64,000 bases of DNA from Heterodontus francisci (Eukaryota), in contig NC_090373.1 in NCBI RefSeq assembly GCF_036365525.1, positions 193,152,161-193,216,160 on the forward strand, written 5' to 3'. Below the pieces are notes generated by a model. The model was not told where the DNA came from, made no database searches, and saw only the letters and a list, made by a program, of their open reading frames with translations. The position numbers were made by a program, and so were the translations under genes. Positions 1,627-21,075 of the stretch are shown in pieces. Position 1 is the first letter of the stretch. Every line of letters begins with the position of its first letter.

Positions 1627-1949
1627 ACAGTCTGTGGAGTCCGGTAATTCCATTATCTTCCAGCTGAACTCGTGGTCCTGAAGTTGTTAGAGATTGCCAC
1701 CTGGTTTTCTCCCCGGGATCTCTGTCTGCCACAATGATAGACTTGAATGTTTTGCAGCCAGCAGGCAGGCTTTGAACTTACAGGGTTGCGTGGAGAGGGA
1801 AAGAGAGAGAAACAGACCTCCACTTTCATCCTGCACTGGTCAAACTCAGGTGCTTGTCTGCTGTAGAGAGAAGAAACTGCAAGTGTTCACATAGATGGAG
1901 AGTCTGTCACATGATGGCCTGGTGTATTCTCTCTTTTGCATCTTAATTA

Positions 1950-2134
1950 GACCAGCGTGTACAGACCTCAACATTGTGACTGTCCACGAGATCACCAAGG
2001 TACCCATAACTGCAGAAGAGACCAAGGGTACGCATATTGAGTCAGTCCAGAACCTGTACCCGGACAGGTTCGACGCCATAGGAGATTTCAAAGGCGATGC
2101 TTTACTGCACCTCAGACAAGATGCTCTCCCTGTG
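1950..2134 (+). mobile_element. Ty3/Gypsy-like pol fragment (protease end / start of RT region)
   Basis: RPACTDLNIVTVHEI..IESVQNLYPDRFDAIGDFKGDALLHLRQDALPV fits the typical Gypsy protease-RT linker pattern (..PAC..L.L....YP..F.GIG.F.G...I.L..DA.PV). Recognised by eye. Confidence 0.65.
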
Positions 2135-2803
2135 TCCAGCCCCCTGATATCTGAAATTGAGTCACAATTCCTCCAGGATCTCAGTGGTTCTGGTTTGGAG
2201 ATTATCAGCCCCTTCTCAGAGACGCCACACCAAGAGAATGAAGATCCAAATTCAGATGGTGCAAGTTCTTTGTCAACAGGCCGTGTTTCCTCACACTCCA
2301 CTGACTCAGAGGAAGAGATTGACATTGTAACCATTGAGAAGAAAAGGCTGTCAGTGGGGAACATTGCCAAGGGGAAATCTCCATGGACTGGAACCTGCTT
2401 GTAGACTCGGGCCAGCATCAAACGGTGCAGTCTGGAAATCCATCAACAGCACAACTATGAACCACCAGCACCACAACGAGCCAGAACAGACAGGTACCAC
2501 CATGAGGCCAAGTAATCCTCCCCGAAAAAGTCCTCAATCTTGAGCTGCAAGCCTTCAGACTTGGAGAATGAGGAGGCAAAGGACACGCAATGTCCTGAAG
2601 AGGTAGAGGAGGAATGAGTTGCAGCATTGTTTGTTGTCTCTTCGAGATGAGGTGCCAGAACTTTCCATAACGACAAGGCCTCAAAAGTGAGAAAAGCAAC
2701 AGAGTATGTTAGCAGGCTGAAGGCAGAACAACAGAAACTGAATGCAGAGAGGAAGAAACTTCAGAAAGAACAGCAACAGATGAGACACAAATTCTCCGAG
2801 TAA
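2135..2803 (+). pseudogene. myc: Intronless, disrupted myc-family sequence (MBIIIa-like, MBIIIb, MBIV, bHLH-leucine zipper)
   Basis: Motifs in order: FLQDLS (cf. c-Myc YLQDLS); STDSEEEIDIVTIEKKR (MBIIIb); after stop 2402-2404, IKRCSLEIHQQHNYEPP (MBIV); SDLENEE/RQRTRNVLKR*RRNELQHCLLSLRDEVPELS/NDKASKV-RKATEYVSRLKAEQQKLNAERKKLQKEQQQMRHKFSE* (bHLHZip, stop 2801-2803). There are several stops and frameshifts. Paralog not determined. Confidence 0.9.
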
Positions 2804-2984
2804 GAGTTATCAAACCACCAAAATGATATATGGATTTTGAAGCTATTATACTTGTAAATGTCACAAACCCTATTCTTGTACCTGTGAATTTTATAATCTA
2901 TATCCTTTACAAGTAATTTTGATATCTAATTTTATGTGTTTTTACTTGTAGCATATGAGACTTATATTTGGAAAGGGAATGGCA

Positions 2985-3234
2985 TGTGATCACATTAAGA
3001 GTGATATCCCTTTAAGATCTCTGTATGCTAATGATTAAGTACCAGGATGTAGTCAAGTGACTACAAGCCAGGGTCACTCTGCAACTGTACAACCCAGATG
3101 AAGGTTCTGTAAATAGTTTGCTCTGTACTGTATCCAATAGTTCAGCTGTTAATAAACCTGTTACAGATCTTCAGCAAACTGGACTCCATTCATCTCATTT
3201 ATGTTGCATCAGACAACACAAAGAACTCATTACA
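2985..3234 (+). mobile_element. Putative short 3' LTR preceded by a polypurine tract
   Basis: GGAAAGGGAA (2970-2979), then TGTGATC...CATTACA (TG..CA termini), with AATAAA at 3151-3156. A CR1 tail begins immediately after 3234. Confidence 0.55.
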
Positions 3235-3950
3235 GGAACAGAGGAACATAGGAGCAGGAGTAGGCCATTCAGCCCATCGAGCCTGCTCCGCTGTTCAGTT
3301 AGATCATGGCTGACCATCTACCTCAATGCCACTTTCCCATGCTATCCCGATATCCCTTGATGTCATTAGTATCCAAATATCTATCGATCTCTGTCTTGAA
3401 CATGCTCAAAGACTGAGGTTCCACAACCCTCTGGGGTAGAGAATTCCAAAGATTCACAACCCTCTGAGTGAAGAAATTCCTGCTCATCTCAGTCTTAAAT
3501 GGCCTACCTCTTTTATTCGGAGATTATGTCCCCCTGGTTCTAGACTCACCAGCCAGAGGAAACATCCTATCCACATCCACCCTGGAAGAATTTTGTAAGT
3601 TTCAATGAGATCACCTCTTATTCTTCGAAATTCTAGAGAATACAGGCCCAGTTTATTCAATCTCTCCTCATAAGACAATCCTGCCATCCCAGGAATCAGT
3701 CTGGTGAACCTTCAATGCACTCCCTCTATGGCAAGTATATTCTTCCTTAAATAAGTAGACCAAAACTGTACACAATACCCCAGGTGTGGTCTCATCAAGG
3801 CTCTATACAATTGCAAGACATCTTTACTCCTGTACTTAAATCCCCTTGCAATGAAGGTCAACATACCATTTGCCTTCCTAATTGCTTGATGCACCTGCAT
3901 ACTAGCTTTTAGTGACTCATAAACAAGAACACCCAGGTTCCTTTGGACAT
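3235..3950 (-). mobile_element. CR1 LINE 3' fragment
   Basis: ORF2 C-terminal motifs (KANGMLTFIARG, RPHLGYCVQFWS, LSYEERLNKLGLYSLEFRRIRGDLIETYKI) and a GAACATAG-type tail. A CR1 piece at ~7070-7195 may be its continuation. Confidence 0.85.
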
Positions 3951-5110
3951 TGTTATGACACGACCGCTTAAGACAAAGCCCCCAATCAAAATATATTATA
4001 CTGATTGTGGTGGGAGCAACACACTGTCAATTCAGTCTCCTTGCTCCACAGGTCATTCTTTAAGCTTTCCCAAATCAAAGAAAGCAGCAGCCGAATTGAA
4101 CAATGTAGTAACCCCCGAATGAGGTGAACCAAACAGGTATCTTTAGATATCAACAAATTAATTGGTTATTAAAAAAACTAAAATCTTAAACACTGCTAAG
4201 ATAAACCAATATCTAAAGACCTTATAACTTATTTACAGAATCGAACTGCTGCATTCACATACAAATAGACAAACTATCGGTAGTATGGTGTTTAATTAGC
4301 TGCCCGAAATGAAACAACCACTGACCACCTCCAGGCGCGTATCCATTGTCTCTCGAGATAAGGAGGCCCAAAAAGAAAAAGAAGAAAAGAAAGAATAAAG
4401 TCTTTGTTGATTTATGTTCCTTATGAAATGGAATCTTCAATGTAGACATAGTCCAAGGTTGCTTGAAGTCTTCACAGTTGTCCGATGGGAAAAAACAAGT
4501 TCTTCAACAATAGGAAATTCAGCAATCCAGTTCAGCAGTTGAAGTGTTACTCTTCTTTTTCCAGCGATGAACACAGCAGATCAACAATTTGCTAACACTT
4601 TCAAAAGAATCAATTTGGCTTAACTTTTAGAATTTTGAGAGGTAAATAAACAGACCAGATACGCTTCCTTCAGTTTAAATGGTCTGAGAGCTCTCCTTTC
4701 AGGTGCTAACACACAGCTATGTCAACTGTGTCATGCAGGCTCCCATCTGCCAAAAATGAGGCACTTTAATTTCAGCACATGGACATTAAGTTTCAAATTG
4801 TTGCTGGGAAGAAGAGAAGGCTTGTTACAAGGAATTGCCAGCCCCCTGGACAAAAAGACATTTTTGCATAGTAGCAGACAGTGTTGGAGCAAAGGACCAT
4901 TCCCTGACCCACCAAATACACAAAGCCAGAAGTAGTTTGTGACTGGTGAATGGTGGGTTCCGACTTTTTTTAAAAGCCTGCTGGAAAACCTCGAATCTGT
5001 CTGAAGTTCAGAAACTGCTGTTCCTGATGTCAGCACCTGTCAGCTGTGAAACTGACAGCACTATGTTTTAAAAAAATGACCAACCACAAAGCTGAGTGCT
5101 CCCGCTCCCT
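3951..5110. mobile_element. Nested LTR-like fragments
   Basis: Abrupt start TGTTATGACA inside the CR1. The reverse complement of ~4015-4055 resembles the 3' end of the 615-1626 LTR. A second TG-start (TGTCATGCAGGC) is at 4729. Boundaries uncertain. Confidence 0.4.
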
Positions 5111-12709: not shown

Positions 12710-15700
12710 CTCAGTGGGTAACACCCGCCTCCAAGTCAGTGTGTTGTAGGTTCAACCTCCGCACCAGAGACATGACCCTATTATCCAGATTGATACATTC
12801 AGAGCAGTACTGAGGGAGAGCTGCACTGCCGGAGGGTCTGTACCGAGGGCGTGCGGCACTGCCGGAGGGTCTGTACCGAGGGCGTGCGGCACTGCCGGAG
12901 GGTCTGTACCGAGGGCGTGCGGCACTGCCGGAGGGTCTGTACCGAGGGCGTGCGGCACTGCCGGAGGGTCTGTACCGAGGGCGTGCGGCACTGCCGGAGG
13001 GTCAGTACCGAGGGCGTGCTGCACTGCCGGAGGGTCAGTACCGAGGGAGTGCTGCACTGCCGGAGGGTCAGCACCGAGGGAGTGCTGCACTGTCGGGGGG
13101 TCAGAACCGAGGGAGAGCTGCACTGTCGGAGGGTCAGTACTGAGGGAGTGCTGCACTGTTGGGGGGTCAGTAGAGCTGCACTGTCGGGGGGGGTCAGTAC
13201 TGAGGGAGTGCTGCACTGTCGGAGGGTCAGTACTGAGGGAGTGCTGCACTGTCGGAGGGTCAGTAGAGCTGCACTGTCGGGGGGGGTCAGTACTGAGGGA
13301 GTGCTGCACTGTCGGAGGGTCAGTACTGAGGGAGTGCTGCACTGTCGGAGGGTCAGTAGAGCTGCACTGTCGAGGGTTCAGTACTGAGGGAGTGCTGTAA
13401 TGTCGGGGGGGTCAGTACTGAGGGAGTGCTGCACTGTCGGAGGGTCAGTACTGAGGGAGTGCTGCACTGTCGGAGGGTCAGTACTGAGGGAGTGCTGCAC
13501 TGTCGGAGGGTCAGTACTGAGGGAGTGCTGCACTGTCGGAGGGTCAGTACTGAGGGAGTGCTGCACTGTTGGAGGGTCAGTACTGAGGGAGTGCTGCACT
13601 GTCGGAAGGTCAGTACTGAGGGAGTGCTGCACTGTCGGAGGGTCAGTACTGAGGGAGAGCTGCACTGTCGAGGGGTCAGTAGAGCTGCACTGTCGGGGGG
13701 GGATCAGTACTGAGGGAGTGCTGCACTGTCGGAGGGTCAGTACTGAGGGAGTGCTGCACTGTCGGAGGGTCAGTACTGAGGGAGTGCTGCACTGTCGAGG
13801 GTTCAGTACTGAGGGAGTGCTGCAATGTCGGGGTCAGTACTGAGGGAGAGCTGCACTGTCGGAGGGTCAGTACTGAGGGAGAGCTGCACTGTCGGAGGGT
13901 CAGTACTGAGGGAGTGCTGCACTGTTGGAGGGTCAGTACTGAGGGAGTGCTGCACTGTCGAGGGGTCAGTAGAGCTGCACTGTCGGGGGGGTCAGCACTG
14001 AGGGAGTGCTGCACTGTCGGGTCAGAACTGAGGGAGAGCTGCACTGTCGGGGGGTCAGAACTGAGGGAGAGCTGCACTGTCGGAGGGTCAGTACTGAGGG
14101 AGTGCTGCACTGTCGGAGGGTCAGTACTGAGGGAGTGCTGCACTGTCGGAGGGTCAGTACTGAGGGAGTGCCGCACTGTCGGGGGGTCAGTACTGAGGGA
14201 GAGCCGCACTGTCGGGTCAGAACTGAGGGAGAGCTGCACTGTCGGGGGGTCAGAACTGAGGGAGAGCTGCACTGTCGGAGGGTCAGTACTGAGGGAGTGC
14301 TGCACTGTCGGAGGGTCAGTACTGAGGGAGTGCTGCACTGTCGGAGGGTCAGTACTGAGGGAGTGCTGCACTGTCGGAGGGTCAGTACTGAGGGAGTGCT
14401 GCACTGTCGGAGGGTCAGTACTGAGGGAGTGCTGCACTGTCGGAGGGTCAGTACTGAGGGAGTGCTGCACTGTCGGAGGGTCAGTACTGAGGGAGTGCTG
14501 CACTGTCGGAGGGTCAGTACTGAGGGAGTGCTGCACTGTCGGAGGGTCAGTACTGAGGGAGTGCTGCACTGTCGGAGGGTCAGTACTGAGGGAGTGCTGC
14601 ACTGTCGGAGGGTCAGTACTGAGGGAGTGCTGCACTGTCGGAGGGTCAGTACTGAGGGAGTGCTGCACTGTCGGAGGGTCAGTACTGAGGGAGTGCTGCA
14701 CTGTCGGAGGGTCAGTACTGAGGGAGTGCTGCACTGTCGGAAGGTCAGTACTGAGGGAGTGCTGCACTGTCGGAAGGTCAGTACTGAGGGAGTGCTGCAC
14801 TGTCGGAAGGTCAGTACTGAGGGAGTGCTGCACTGTCGGAAGGTCAGTACTGAGGGAGTGCTGCACTGTCGGAAGGTCAGTACTGAGGGAGTGCTGCACT
14901 GTCGGAAGGTCAGTACTGAGGGAGTGCTGCACTGTCGGAAGGTCAGTACTGAGGGAGTGCTGCACTGTCGGGGGGGTCAGTACAGAGGGAGTGCTGCACT
15001 GTCGGAGGGTCAGTAGAGCTGCACTGTTGGGGGGTCAGTACTGAGGGAGAGCTGCACTGTCGGGGGGTCAGTTCTGAGGGAGTGCTGTACTGTCGGGGGG
15101 GTCAGTTCTGAGGGAGAGCTGCACTGTCGTGGGGTCAGTACTGAGGGAGAGCTGCACTGTCGTGGGGTCAGTACTGAGGGAGAGCTGCACTGTCGTGGGG
15201 TCAGTACTGAGGGAGAGCTGCACTGTCGTGGGGTCAGTACTGAGGGAGAGCTGCACTGTCGTGGGGTCAGTACTGAGGGAGAGCTGCACTGTCGTGGGGT
15301 CAGTACTGAGGGAGTGCTGCACTGTCGAGGGTTCAGTACTGAGGGAGTGCTGCAATGTCGGGGTCAGTACTGAGGGAGAGCTGCACTGTCGGAGGGTCAG
15401 TACTGAGGGAGAGCTGCACTGTCGGAGGGTCAGTACTGAGGGAGTGCTGCACTGTCGGAGGGTCAGTACTGAGGGAGTGCTGCACTGTCGAGGGGTCAGT
15501 CGAGCTGCACTGTCGGGGGGGTCAGCACTGAGGGAGTGCTGCACTGTCGGGTCAGAACTGAGGGAGAGCTGCACTGTCGGGGGGTCAGAACTGAGGGAGA
15601 GCTGCACTGTCGGAGGGTCAGTACTGAGGGAGTGCTGCACTGTCGGAGGGTCAGTACTGAGGGAGTGCTGCACTGTCGGAGGGTCAGTACTGAGGGAGTG

Positions 15701-18700
15701 CTGCACTGTCGGGGGGTCAGTACTGAGGGAGAGCCGCACTGTCGGGTCAGAACTGAGGGAGAGCTGCACTGTCGGGGGGTCAGAACTGAGGGAGAGCTGC
15801 ACTGTCGGAGGGTCAGTACTGAGGGAGTGCTGCACTGTCGGAGGGTCAGTACTGAGGGAGTGCTGCACTGTCGGAGGGTCAGTACTGAGGGAGTGCTGCA
15901 CTGTCGGAGGGTCAGTACTGAGGGAGTGCTGCACTGTCGGAGGGTCAGTACTGAGGGAGTGCTGCACTGTCGGAGGGTCAGTACTGAGGGAGTGCTGCAC
16001 TGTCGGAGGGTCAGTACTGAGGGAGTGCTGCACTGTCGGAGGGTCAGTACTGAGGGAGTGCTGCACTGTCGGAGGGTCAGTACTGAGGGAGTGCTGCACT
16101 GTCGGAGGGTCAGTACTGAGGGAGTGCTGCACTGTCGGAGGGTCAGTACTGAGGGAGTGCTGCACTGTCGGAGGGTCAGTACTGAGGGAGTGCTGCACTG
16201 TCGGAGGGTCAGTACTGAGGGAGTGCTGCACTGTCGGAAGGTCAGTACTGAGGGAGTGCTGCACTGTCGGAAGGTCAGTACTGAGGGAGTGCTGCACTGT
16301 CGGAAGGTCAGTACTGAGGGAGTGCTGCACTGTCGGAAGGTCAGTACTGAGGGAGTGCTGCACTGTCGTAAGGTCAGTACTGAGGGAGTGCTGCACTGTC
16401 GGAAGGTCAGTACTGAGGGAGTGCTGCACTGTCGGAAGGTCAGTACTGAGGGAGTGCTGCACTGTCGGGGGGGTCAGTACAGAGGGAGTGCTGCACTGTC
16501 GGAGGGTCAGTAGAGCTGCACTGTTGGGGGGTCAATACTGAGGGAGAGCTGCACTGTCGGGGGGTCAGTTCTGAGGGAGTGCTGTACTGTCAGGGGGGGT
16601 CAGTTCTGAGGGAGAGCTGCACTGTCGTGGGGTCAGTACTGAGGGAGAGCTGCACTGTCGTGGGGTCAGTACTGAGGGAGAGCTGCACTGTCGTGGGGTC
16701 AGTACTGAGGGAGAGCTGCACTGTCGTGGGGTCAGTACTGAGGGAGAGCTGCACTGTCGTGGGGTCAGTACTGAGGGAGAGCTGCACTGTCGTGGGGTCA
16801 GTACTGAGGGAGAGCTGCACTGTCGTGGGGTCAGTACTGAGGGAGAGCTGCACTGTCGTGGGGTCAGTACTGAGGGAGAGCTGCACTGTCGTGGGGTCAG
16901 TACTGAGGGAGAGCTGCACTGTCGTGGGGTCAGTACTGAGGGAGAGCTGCACTGTCGTGGGGTCAGTACTGAGGGAGAGCTGCACTGTCGTGGGGTCAGT
17001 ACTGAGGGAGAGCTGCACTGTCGTGGGGTCAGTACTGAGGGAGAGCTGCACTGTCGTGGGGTCAGTACTGAGGGAGAGCTGCACTGTCGTGGGGTCAGTA
17101 CTGAGGGAGAGCTGCACTGTCGTGGGGTCAGTACTGAGGGAGAGCTGCACTGTCGTGGGGTCAGTACTGAGGGAGAGCTGCACTGTCGTGGGGTCAGTAC
17201 TGAGGGAGAGCTGCACTGTCGTGGGGTCAGTACTGAGGGAGAGCTGCACTGTCGTGGGGTCAGTACTGAGGGAGAGCTGCACTGTCGTGGGGTCAGTACT
17301 GAGGGAGAGCTGCACTGTCGTGGGGTCAGTACTGAGGGAGAGCTGCACTGTCGTGGGGTCAGTACTGAGGGAGAGCTGCACTGTCGTGGGGTCAGTACTG
17401 AGGGAGAGCTGCACTGTCGTGGGGTCAGTACTGAGGGAGAGCTGCACTGTCGTGGGGTCAGTACTGAGGGAGAGCTGCACTGTCGTGGGGTCAGTACTGA
17501 GGGAGAGCTGCACTGTCGTGGGGTCAGTACTGAGGGAGAGCTGCACTGTCGTGGGGTCAGTACTGAGGGAGAGCTGCACTGTCGTGGGGTCAGTACTGAG
17601 GGAGAGCTGCACTGTCGTGGGGTCAGTACTGAGGGAGAGCTGCACTGTCGTGGGGTCAGTACTGAGGGAGAGCTGCACTGTCGTGGGGTCAGTACTGAGG
17701 GAGAGCTGCACTGTCGTGGGGTCAGTACTGAGGGAGAGCTGCACTGTCGTGGGGTCAGTACTGAGGGAGAGCTGCACTGTCGTGGGGTCAGTACTGAGGG
17801 AGAGCTGCACTGTCGTGGGGTCAGTACTGAGGGAGAGCTGCACTGTCGTGGGGTCAGTACTGAGGGAGAGCTGCACTGTCGTGGGGTCAGTACTGAGGGA
17901 GAGCTGCACTGTCGTGGGGTCAGTACTGAGGGAGAGCTGCACTGTCGTGGGGTCAGTACTGAGGGAGAGCTGCACTGTCGTGGGGTCAGTACTGAGGGAG
18001 AGCTGCACTGTCGTGGGGTCAGTACTGAGGGAGAGCTGCACTGTCGTGGGGTCAGTACTGAGGGAGAGCTGCACTGTCGTGGGGTCAGTACTGAGGGAGA
18101 GCTGCACTGTCGTGGGGTCAGTACTGAGGGAGAGCTGCACTGTCGTGGGGTCAGTACTGAGGGAGAGCTGCACTGTCGTGGGGTCAGTACTGAGGGAGAG
18201 CTGCACTGTCGTGGGGTCAGTACTGAGGGAGAGCTGCACTGTCGTGGGGTCAGTACTGAGGGAGAGCTGCACTGTCGTGGGGTCAGTACTGAGGGAGAGC
18301 TGCACTGTCGTGGGGTCAGTACTGAGGGAGAGCTGCACTGTCGTGGGGTCAGTACTGAGGGAGAGCTGCACTGTCGTGGGGTCAGTACTGAGGGAGAGCT
18401 GCACTGTCGTGGGGTCAGTACTGAGGGAGAGCTGCACTGTCGTGGGGTCAGTACTGAGGGAGAGCTGCACTGTCGTGGGGTCAGTACTGAGGGAGAGCTG
18501 CACTGTCGTGGGGTCAGTACTGAGGGAGAGCTGCACTGTCGTGGGGTCAGTACTGAGGGAGAGCTGCACTGTCGTGGGGTCAGTACTGAGGGAGAGCTGC
18601 ACTGTCGTGGGGTCAGTACTGAGGGAGAGCTGCACTGTCGTGGGGTCAGTACTGAGGGAGAGCTGCACTGTCGTGGGGTCAGTACTGAGGGAGAGCTGCA

Positions 18701-21075
18701 CTGTCGTGGGGTCAGTACTGAGGGAGAGCTGCACTGTCGTGGGGTCAGTACTGAGGGAGAGCTGCACTGTCGTGGGGTCAGTACTGAGGGAGAGCTGCAC
18801 TGTCGTGGGGTCAGTACTGAGGGAGAGCTGCACTGTCGTGGGGTCAGTACTGAGGGAGAGCTGCACTGTCGTGGGGTCAGTACTGAGGGAGAGCTGCACT
18901 GTCGTGGGGTCAGTACTGAGGGAGAGCTGCACTGTCGTGGGGTCAGTACTGAGGGAGAGCTGCACTGTCGTGGGGTCAGTACTGAGGGAGAGCTGCACTG
19001 TCGTGGGGTCAGTACTGAGGGAGAGCTGCACTGTCGTGGGGTCAGTACTGAGGGAGAGCTGCACTGTCGTGGGGTCAGTACTGAGGGAGAGCTGCACTGT
19101 CGTGGGGTCAGTACTGAGGGAGAGCTGCACTGTCGTGGGGTCAGTACTGAGGGAGAGCTGCACTGTCGTGGGGTCAGTACTGAGGGAGAGCTGCACTGTC
19201 GTGGGGTCAGTACTGAGGGAGAGCTGCACTGTCGTGGGGTCAGTACTGAGGGAGAGCTGCACTGTCGTGGGGTCAGTACTGAGGGAGAGCTGCACTGTCG
19301 TGGGGTCAGTACTGAGGGAGAGCTGCACTGTCGTGGGGTCAGTACTGAGGGAGAGCTGCACTGTCGTGGGGTCAGTACTGAGGGAGAGCTGCACTGTCGT
19401 GGGGTCAGTACTGAGGGAGAGCGGCACTGTCGTGGGGTCAGTACTGAGGGAGAGCGGCACTGTCGTGGGGTCAGTACTGAGGGAGAGCGGCACTGTCGTG
19501 GGGTCAGTACTGAGGGAGAGCGGCACTGTCGTGGGGTCAGTACTGAGGGAGAGCGGCACTGTCGTGGGGTCAGTACTGAGGGAGAGCTGCACTGTCGTGG
19601 GGTCAGTACTGAGGGAGAGCTGCACTGTCGTGGGGTCAGTACTGAGGGAGAGCTGCACTGTCGTGGGGTCAGTACTGAGGGAGAGCTGCACTGTCGTGGG
19701 GTCAGTACTGAGGGAGAGCTGCACTGTCGTGGGGTCAGTACTGAGGGAGAGCTGCACTGTCGTGGGGTCAGTACTGAGGGAGAGCTGCACTGTCGTGGGG
19801 TCAGTACTGAGGGAGAGCTGCACTGTCGTGGGGTCAGTACTGAGGGAGAGCTGCACTGTCGTGGGGTCAGTACTGAGGGAGAGCTGCACTGTCGTGGGGT
19901 CAGTACTGAGGGAGAGCTGCACTGTCGTGGGGTCAGTACTGAGGGAGAGCTGCACTGTCGTGGGGTCAGTACTGAGGGAGAGCTGCACTGTCGTGGGGTC
20001 AGTACTGAGGGAGAGCTGCACTGTCGTGGGGTCAGTACTGAGGGAGAGCTGCACTGTCGTGGGGTCAGTACTGAGGGAGAGCTGCACTGTCGTGGGGTCA
20101 GTACTGAGGGAGAGCTGCACTGTCGTGGGGTCAGTACTGAGGGAGAGCTGCACTGTCGTGGGGTCAGTACTGAGGGAGAGCTGCACTGTCGTGGGGTCAG
20201 TACTGAGGGAGAGCTGCACTGTCGTGGGGTCAGTACTGAGGGAGAGCTGCACTGTCGTGGGGTCAGTACTGAGGGAGAGCTGCACTGTCGTGGGGTCAGT
20301 ACTGAGGGAGAGCTGCACTGTCGTGGGGTCAGTACTGAGGGAGAGCTGCACTGTCGTGGGGTCAGTACTGAGGGAGAGCTGCACTGTCGTGGGGTCAGTA
20401 CTGAGGGAGAGCTGCACTGTCGTGGGGTCAGTACTGAGGGAGAGCTGCACTGTCGTGGGGTCAGTACTGAGGGAGAGCTGCACTGTCGTGGGGTCAGTAC
20501 TGAGGGAGAGCTGCACTGTCGTGGGGTCAGTACCGAGGGAGAGCTGCACTGTCGTGGGGTCAGTACCGAGGGAGAGCTGCACTGTCGTGGGGTCAGTACC
20601 GAGGGAGAGCTGCACTGTCGTGGGGTCAGTACCGAGGGAGTGCTGCACTGTCGTGGGGTCAGTACCGAGGGAGTGCTGCACGGTCTGAGGGTCAGTACCG
20701 AGGGAGTGCTGCACTGTCTGAGGGTCAGTACCGAGGGAGTGCTGCACTGTCTGAGGGTCAGTACTGAGGGAGTGCTGCACTGTCTGAGGGTCAGTACTGA
20801 GGGAGTGCTGCACTGTCTGAGGGTCAGTACTGAGGGAGTGCTGCACTGTCTGAGGGTCAGTACTGAGGGAGTGCTGCACTGTCAGAGGGTCAGTACTGAG
20901 GGAGTGCTGCACTTTCGGAGGGTCAGTACCGAGGGAGTGCTGTTCCATTGGAGGTGTCGTCTGTCAGTTGGGAGGTTAAACTGAGCCCCCATCTGCTGTC
21001 TGACTTGAATGTAAAAGGTCACACAGCCACAGGAAAAGCTCAGGTGTCCTGCCCAATAATTATTCCTCAACCCGT
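12710..21075 (+). mobile_element. DeuSINE-like SINE split by internal tandem amplification
   Basis: SINE head at 12710-12805 and body continuation at ~20955-21075. Both are collinear with the unexpanded copy on - at 58385-58835. Confidence 0.7.
12805..20955 (+). repeat. 33-bp minisatellite, ~8.1 kb (roughly 240-250 units), in CNIH4 intron 3
   Basis: Unit GGGTCAGTACTGAGGGAG(T/A)GCTGCACTGTC(GGA/GTG); near-homogeneous from ~16620 to ~20530. Confidence 0.98.

Follow-up and report, generated by a model that had tools for sequence, protein, structure and literature searches.

MC29 is an acutely transforming retrovirus that carries a gag-myc fusion. The general route by which acutely transforming retroviruses capture host genes has been described (PMC4299795, PMC13297096), and LTR-mediated gene capture is already known, including that of growth-related mRNAs by crocodilian ERVs (PMC4299795). 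CrocERV29, with KIT-ligand, and CrocERV31, with nectin3, are vertebrate germline retroelements that carry growth-related host mRNA in several copies; they belong to the Retroviridae, are present in 9 and 6 copies, respectively, and encode their cargo in separate ORFs that are reported to be under purifying selection (PMC4299795). Maize Bs1, named in PMC5131818, is a non-autonomous LTR retrotransposon, a plant element, with captured pieces of cellular mRNA from three donor genes, and its cargo is not a transcription-factor domain. The main text of PMC5131818, by Tan et al. (2016), describes LTR-mediated retroposition in animals, in which the internal ORFs of an element are partly replaced by a partial spliced mRNA, with ~6 bp of microsimilarity at both switch points, no poly(A), and further rounds of non-autonomous movement; the cases reported there occupy single or few loci (15 polymorphisms in fly, 3 retrocopies in mosquito, 7 in zebrafish and 10 in chicken).

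The window analysed here, a stretch of 64,000 nucleotides from Heterodontus francisci (NC_090373.1, positions 193,152,161 to 193,216,160), contains a decayed, 5'-truncated copy of a non-autonomous Ty3/Gypsy family in whose full copies mych stands where RT, RNase H and the greater part of integrase would be. That mych was captured and then amplified in this Ty3/Gypsy family is, in our view, practically certain. In contrast to the cases of Tan et al. (PMC5131818), in the form in which the main text gives them, a single capture is found here at 614 or more sites, in nested subfamilies and probably on several helper backbones. The family shares with MC29-type viruses a defective genome, an in-frame fusion of Gag to spliced myc-family sequence, and dependence on a helper; unlike MC29, the carrier is an env-less Ty3/Gypsy element that is germline and fixed, the captured gene is mych, its activation end was left behind, and most copies have lost the glutamate that reads E-boxes. 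The route of capture thus appears to be like that of MC29, with a cargo that is probably not oncogenic. In comparison with the crocodilian elements, the shark family encodes its cargo within a Gypsy polyprotein, numbers hundreds to thousands of copies, and gave no detected signal of purifying selection. It offers a germline fossil record of the route by which acutely transforming retroviruses capture genes, but from an LTR element that is not a retrovirus and with a donor from the Myc family, and the parent gene, the helper, both junctions and the later trimming steps can all be read in one genome. The large number of copies allows the fate of a captured proto-oncogene in the germline to be tested, and here it seems to have been cut to its dimerisation domain and to have lost its DNA-reading residue. 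No published account of this family, or of a Myc capture amplified so far, was found in a literature search that lay outside Repbase, Dfam, GyDB, most subscription papers and the supplements of PMC5131818 (fish cases). The features of the window copy are as follows.

1895..2404, + strand: residual open frame over the pol-myc junction
1951..2124, + strand: Gypsy pol remnant, comprising the C-terminal end of protease and the linker before RT, with the 5' truncation at 1951 (80-84% to RT-bearing helper copies; blastx)
2120..2124, + strand: what is left of the microhomology at the 5' capture point (7 nt long in the host gene and helper copies, 5 nt in the window copy)
2120..2309, + strand: captured 3' portion of mych coding exon 1, residues ~122-184 (86% to mych on G000:C16)
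2310..2793, + strand: captured mych coding exon 2 (residues ~184-357), running from the acidic box to the bHLH-zipper and following exon 1 with no intron between them (83% to the host exon)
2586..2600, + strand: basic-region positions 5 and 9, host His286 and Glu290 (host alignment; register against human Myc in PDB 1NKP)
2788..2793, + strand: 3' capture microhomology, a 6-mer where mych passes into the integrase tail (host and helper sequences)
2794..2969, + strand: helper-derived remnant of the integrase tail and 3' UTR, shortened by the class D/E/F deletion (72-88% to helper copies just 5' of their 3' LTR)
2970..2979, + strand: polypurine tract (same place in most of 20 long copies)
2980..3234, + strand: 3' LTR, TG...CA, 255 bp, with AATAAA at 3151-3156 (paired in 18 of 20 long copies; common to the helper family)

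The original prediction was of a pol-like frame running directly into myc-like sequence, and the open frame at 1895-2404 bears this out: window positions 1952-2131 match residues 416-470 of P0009, an intact single-ORF Gypsy polyprotein (47% identity, E 2e-16, blastx; all 10 tested proteins were hit), and the myc part matches mych. The frame closes at 2402-2404, further stops and frameshifts follow downstream, and the exon 2 part carries stops and indels. The pol homology of the predicted peptide is therefore real, but its end had been placed too far downstream, at 2134; homology to the helper stops at ~2124, and DALPV belongs to the common junction. Position 2803 had been taken as the myc stop, yet the similarity to myc extends only to 2793, and the TAA at 2801-2803 arose by a nonsense change within a tail that derives from the retrotransposon (4 of the 80 tails printed stop there); the ~165 nt of AT-rich sequence is the integrase tail and 3' UTR of the helper and not a myc 3' UTR. 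The purine tract at 2970-2979 and the LTR are genuine and common to the family, with the LTR starting at TG in position 2980 rather than at 2985. The description of the locus as a decayed, 5'-truncated copy stands, and no 5' half, 5' LTR or target duplication was found in the window or in 60 kb upstream. In its basic region, this copy has Arg at 2586-2588 (position 5) and Lys at 2598-2600 (position 9). Other repeats lie nearby: a ~1-kb TG...CA segment at 615-1626, with ACAG on both flanks and a part that matches other loci at up to 84%, probably represents the solo LTR of a different family; on the - strand, at 3235-3951, a repeat containing RT-like frames adjoins the LTR end, recurs at other loci, and presumably resembles the 3' part of a CR1-type LINE; and a 33-nt minisatellite array spans ~12734-21000, with at least 212 overlapping matches.

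Full copies of the family are ~3.4 kb and consist of paired ~255-bp LTRs with 5-bp target duplications, a tRNA-Leu primer site, gag-protease, and then mych. A first look with the window stretch gave 8,923 candidates, and the 40 that were scored comprised the window and 39 other places at 79-84% identity. Two LTRs with TG...CA ends were present in 18 of 20 copies with long flanks, most of which measured ~3.4 kb end to end. Target duplications of 5 bp were perfect in 9 of the 22 myc copies in which both LTRs were scored (with four of five letters in 3 more) and in 2 of 5 helper copies, and the LTR pairs of those 22 myc copies have diverged by 7.1-16.9%. In its commonest form (15 of 36 sites), the primer site agrees at 14 of 15 positions with the 3' ends of tRNA-Leu genes from the same genome; a tandem array at G000:C34:18.73-19.00 Mb contains ~80 matches to the tRNA-Leu 3' end with a 3,050-bp period. 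The sequence between the LTRs encodes gag with a zinc-knuckle-like region, protease and myc. Pfam gave no match for gag and a weak one for protease (E 0.098); protease was assigned from a DTGA motif and the match to P0009, with homology shown by blastx to intact polyproteins. Many copies (L002, L111, L112, L116, L119, L124, L125, L134 and L161) have gag interrupted at almost the same position, as might be expected if some other mobile element has an insertion hot spot there. The 39 further loci, the paired LTRs and the helper described below confirm that this is, as predicted, a multi-copy non-autonomous Ty3/Gypsy family in which spliced myc-family mRNA replaces RT, RNase H and most of integrase, and neither a single-copy junction, nor missing pol homology, nor a non-repeated LTR, nor a myc part with its own poly(A) and target duplications was found.

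A 19-mer from the host mych exon had 615 exact matches in the genome, compared with 0 for the control, and one of the 615 is the host gene, leaving at least 614 element sites. Because the same 19-mer is present in 19 of 44 copies that were not chosen by it, the matches suggest a family of ~1,400 copies, and probably more, since those 44 copies are among the least decayed. A query with the mych exon gave 2,899 candidates. An RT 19-mer (picked as the best such word and present in 10 of 15 copies) had 650 matches, and comparison with the 615 indicates that myc-bearing and RT-bearing copies are similar in number. Five myc copies with identical scores at G000:C29:33.4-42.0 Mb are likely segmental duplicates, and L064/L065 and L072/L073/L075 look duplicated as well. 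The NCBI protein P0007, named 'N-myc proto-oncogene protein-like', is an element copy with a surviving open frame (L207, G000:C8:37405941-37406699); we do not take that frame as evidence of domestication, as ~1.4% of copies are expected to be open over 253 codons by chance. P0006, an uncharacterized 1,346-aa model with TRIM-like domains, includes element sequence too. Names such as that of P0007 mean that counts of myc genes in this shark can be inflated.

The donor can be specified further than the myc-family gene that had been predicted: it is mych. The top five protein matches of the myc-like part are all shark mych-type, with 78% to P0001, a 'myelocytomatosis oncogene homolog' of H. francisci that is 100% identical to a two-exon gene on G000:C16, and the best element copies show 90-92% DNA identity to that gene. 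The host mych intron (~1.7 kb, GT-AG) is missing from the captured sequence, and of the 63 copies in which this could be scored, 62 have the two mych exons directly side by side (11 further copies were unscored, and class F and two single copies were omitted as they do not have that junction). Pfam Myc_N and HLH domains were found on other element copies. The captured piece corresponds to the spliced rear two-thirds of mych, residues ~122-357; neither the upstream part of the mych exon (residues 1-121) nor the host mych 3' UTR has a match in any of 94 copies, and there is no poly(A) at the 3' junction. P0001 has residues that differ from all four other shark mych proteins, and most copies carry these at 8 of 10 positions, so that capture likely took place in the H. 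francisci lineage. In protein searches, fused copies appeared only under the name H. francisci, a weak indication with regard to other sharks, as decayed copies are rarely annotated. Copies differ from their own class by 7-9%, and no examined copy looks young. A second, 43% match to the mych N-terminus, at L052 (G000:C5:179850112-179850462), is probably another myc paralogue.

A protease query returned 30 loci, of which 7 carry myc and 23 cease to match the window at 2102-2124. Long copies among these 23 are RT-bearing helper copies of ~5.4 kb, which have their LTRs and both junctions in common with the myc family; L094 and L102 contain RVT_1, RT_RNaseH, Integrase_H2C2 and rve in Gypsy order (Pfam), and no env-like ORF was noted in the ~5.4-kb helper. 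It matches the K02A2.6-like polyproteins P0009 and P0013 (Patiria miniata) from gag to integrase in one ORF, at ~60% in RT-RNase H, although the Pfam lists of those polyproteins include no Myc domain. The nearest named matches of the helper are K02A2.6-like or 'Gypsy', and it may resemble the Mag clade. The nearest named relatives of L094:4052-4723 are from echinoderms (59-62%; Diadema, Patiria, Holothuria), with teleost elements at 45-50% and no shark names among the 120 matches listed; horizontal transfer of the helper is possible on these similarities.

At the 5' junction, GGATGCA is common to host and helper (exact in 19 of 36 RT-bearing copies), and at the 3' junction, CAAATT is common to both (exact in 21 of 36, with 9 unscored), followed after five letters by a further 8-mer that host and helper have in common. 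Assuming equal base frequencies, the chance of two overlaps of at least 6 nt is ~2e-6. Both joins are in frame, and natural early-class copies read through to the integrase stop. About 2.2 kb of pol has been replaced rather than interrupted, with microhomology at each end. From the in-frame 6-7-nt microhomologies at both junctions, we infer that mych was likely captured by one double template switch, the pattern of capture reported by Tan et al. 2016 (PMC5131818).

The copies sort into nested classes, in which later subfamilies have trimmed the cassette by in-frame deletions and kept the bHLH-zipper.

Classes A, B and C: full 5' junction, with progressively shorter in-frame integrase tails
Class D (the class of the window copy): a tail deletion that shifts the frame just after the zipper
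Class E: in addition, a 120-nt in-frame deletion over the 5' junction
Class F: protease end fused in frame to residue ~201
Class X (2 copies): another in-frame deletion

The deletions approach the bHLH-zipper from both sides without reaching into it in any amplified class. Class F, in which trimming has gone furthest, accounts for 18 of the 30 copies that the myc 19-mer sampled on contig C1. In a gag tree with weak support, RT-bearing copies interleave with the myc classes and have the same LTR and 5' UTR types, suggesting that the cassette was likely moved between helpers by recombination and is now found on several LTR/gag backbones. The tree of the myc parts has a star-like shape and poor support. 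L110 and L125 (G000:C8:111.2 and 112.4 Mb) belong to different structural classes and have near-identical myc parts (support 100/100), which suggests gene conversion or recombination. Contigs from three sequencing runs span one copy at 80% likeness and the class F junction; they come from one sample that we guess to be RNA and in which DNA may be present, and were not counted as expression.

Residues 1-121 of P0001, for which the cargo has no counterpart, contain the motifs LPTPP and DCMW, which we take to be MBI and MBII. In c-Myc, the N-terminal region comprises the activation domain and MB0-MBII (PMC7780693). His286, Glu290 and Arg294 of P0001 align with positions 5, 9 and 13 of the human Myc basic region (PDB 1NKP), which are the base-reading positions, with Glu9 making the strongest E-box contact (PMC8431614). 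Glu290 does not vary among five shark mych proteins, yet only 9 of 92 element copies retain it, all of them among the 25 early copies and none among the 67 late ones, and His286 is kept in 41 of 90 (22 of 26 early and 19 of 65 late), where some of the late His codons may have been restored by CpG decay. Arg294 (83 of 92 copies) and the zipper leucines 333, 340 and 347 (81 of 90, 84 of 90 and 71 of 91) are kept at background rates. Two of the ~6 class-wide changes in the bHLH-zipper fall on the three base-reading positions (post hoc P ~0.015). The cargo is predicted to be a domain that lacks activation capacity and is blind to E-boxes, though it may still be able to pair with Max. It is like Omomyc and ID-type dominant negatives in being an activation-less dimerisation domain, with a predicted loss of E-box reading as in ID (PMC7780693, PMC8431614); unlike them, it is natural and retroelement-borne and its dimerisation is putative, and Omomyc keeps DNA binding (PMC7780693).

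The ratio pN/pS for the myc part between early and late classes was 0.52-0.79, compared with a neutral baseline of 0.56-0.69 from private changes (binomial P 0.63), and purifying selection on Myc substitutions was not detected in these 13-17 changes; the proposed check for a dN/dS below 1 on the myc part gave no sign of purifying selection within the element lineage. All four shared events upstream of the zipper are in frame, compared with 57 of 161 private deletions of at least 6 nt (P ~0.016; this in-frame test and the hypergeometric one are both post hoc, with 4-6 events behind them), which is suggestive of frame conservation in that region, and the sole shared out-of-frame deletion lies after the zipper. 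Many class-specific indels of 1-2 nt have become fixed in the LTR and 5' UTR, and none in gag-protease. The lack of fixed stops is weak evidence, since there are only ~13 class-wide changes in 420 nt. Among 70 protease-bearing elements sampled blind to their downstream part, 40 carry pol, 27 carry myc from one capture, and 3 carry neither, where two of the myc rows are one inverted pair and the search pattern under-samples class F. The pol-deletion derivatives in this sample have their own breakpoints each, and the myc lineage is the sole deletion derivative that has been amplified. We rejected low gag pN/pS between myc classes (0.16, P 2e-4) as a sign of selection in the myc lineage, because RT-bearing copies fall within the same clades; synonymous divergence in gag (0.19), far above that in myc (0.05; P 0.005), also counts against crediting the gag ratio to the myc lineage. 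A pN/pS of 0.17 between the host and the early class was rejected as well, since changes on the host branch contribute to it, and of two frequent stop columns in gag, one stems from a deletion that the reference copy carries and the other from a CpG site whose decay is just as common in helper copies.

The reading that we prefer, with a probability of roughly 0.55, is that a Gag-protease-Myc polyprotein was likely made, and that its Myc part was a disarmed and tolerated passenger, which would neither activate genes nor read E-boxes. Helper RT would have jumped onto a co-packaged mych mRNA and back, and the product would have relied on the helper for copying in trans and have recombined with its RNAs, which would have placed the cassette on several LTR/gag backbones. 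One uninterrupted frame, reaching from gag through the whole cassette, may have been favoured through packaging of the RNA by its own Gag or through escape from RNA decay. A Myc unable to activate but still able to bind E-boxes would interfere in germ cells with the targets of host Myc/Max, and variants that had lost the base-reading glutamate would therefore have taken over. What speaks against the tolerated passenger is that pN/pS in the myc part is no lower than the neutral baseline and most Myc residues show no signal of selection; moreover, the tests of frame and residues are the post hoc ones on 4-6 events, class X consists of just 2 copies, and the trees are weakly supported. The position of myc as the only amplified deletion derivative among the 70 sampled elements fits better with a cargo that was of use.

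That the Myc helix-loop-helix-zipper was kept since it aided spread of the element is possible, although we consider it unlikely. A DNA-blind Myc released by the protease could sequester Max and so relax, in germ cells, the repression that depends on it; alternatively, the Myc nuclear localisation signal could bring particles or cDNA to the nucleus. The way in which deletions close in on a bHLH-zipper that no amplified class enters, the predominance of class F in the contig C1 sample, the mostly kept zipper leucines, and the 27 of 70 elements with myc from one capture, set against pol-deletion derivatives with individual breakpoints, are all consistent with such a use. MAX represses meiotic genes in mouse germ cells (PMC10909893), and Max sequestration is a proposed action of Omomyc (PMC7780693). 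However, Myc substitutions carry no purifying signal, the evidence on Max comes from mouse, and founder luck could let one derivative dominate. If the cargo was indeed useful, a Gypsy element made a captured host transcription factor its own tool by trimming it to a DNA-blind HLH-zipper, and this would explain why one capture is the only amplified non-autonomous lineage and is about as numerous as its helper.

Less likely still is that myc only fills the space between gag-protease and the purine tract, with the in-frame joins and basic-region changes being chance hitchhikers. The equality of between-class myc pN/pS with the neutral baseline is what would be expected of a filler, the few class-wide changes mean that absent fixed stops say little, and Tan et al. 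report that most young LTR-mediated retrocopies are in frame, possibly just from youth (PMC5131818). The four in-frame events of four and the two hits on base-reading positions (P ~0.015 each) argue against it, as does the fixation of 1-2-nt indels in the LTR and 5' UTR but not in gag-protease.

A v-myc-like oncogene, in which the fusion drove proliferation of germ cells and so spread the element, is very improbable. The capture route is as in acutely transforming retroviruses, the fusion to Gag is in frame, the copy number is very large, and mych is maternal in zebrafish (PMC2323570), which would give access to the germline; nevertheless, the absence of residues 1-121 from all 94 copies largely refutes such a function, and Glu290 has been lost in 83 of 92 copies. 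In a functional sense, the oncogene transduction that the original prediction had envisaged finds no support, given the same two results. Finally, a LINE-made myc retrocopy that landed inside an LTR element would also explain the loss of the intron, but we give it next to no weight, as the copies are without the mych 3' UTR and without poly(A) at the 3' junction, and it is refuted by the replacement of ~2.2 kb of pol with microhomology at both ends.
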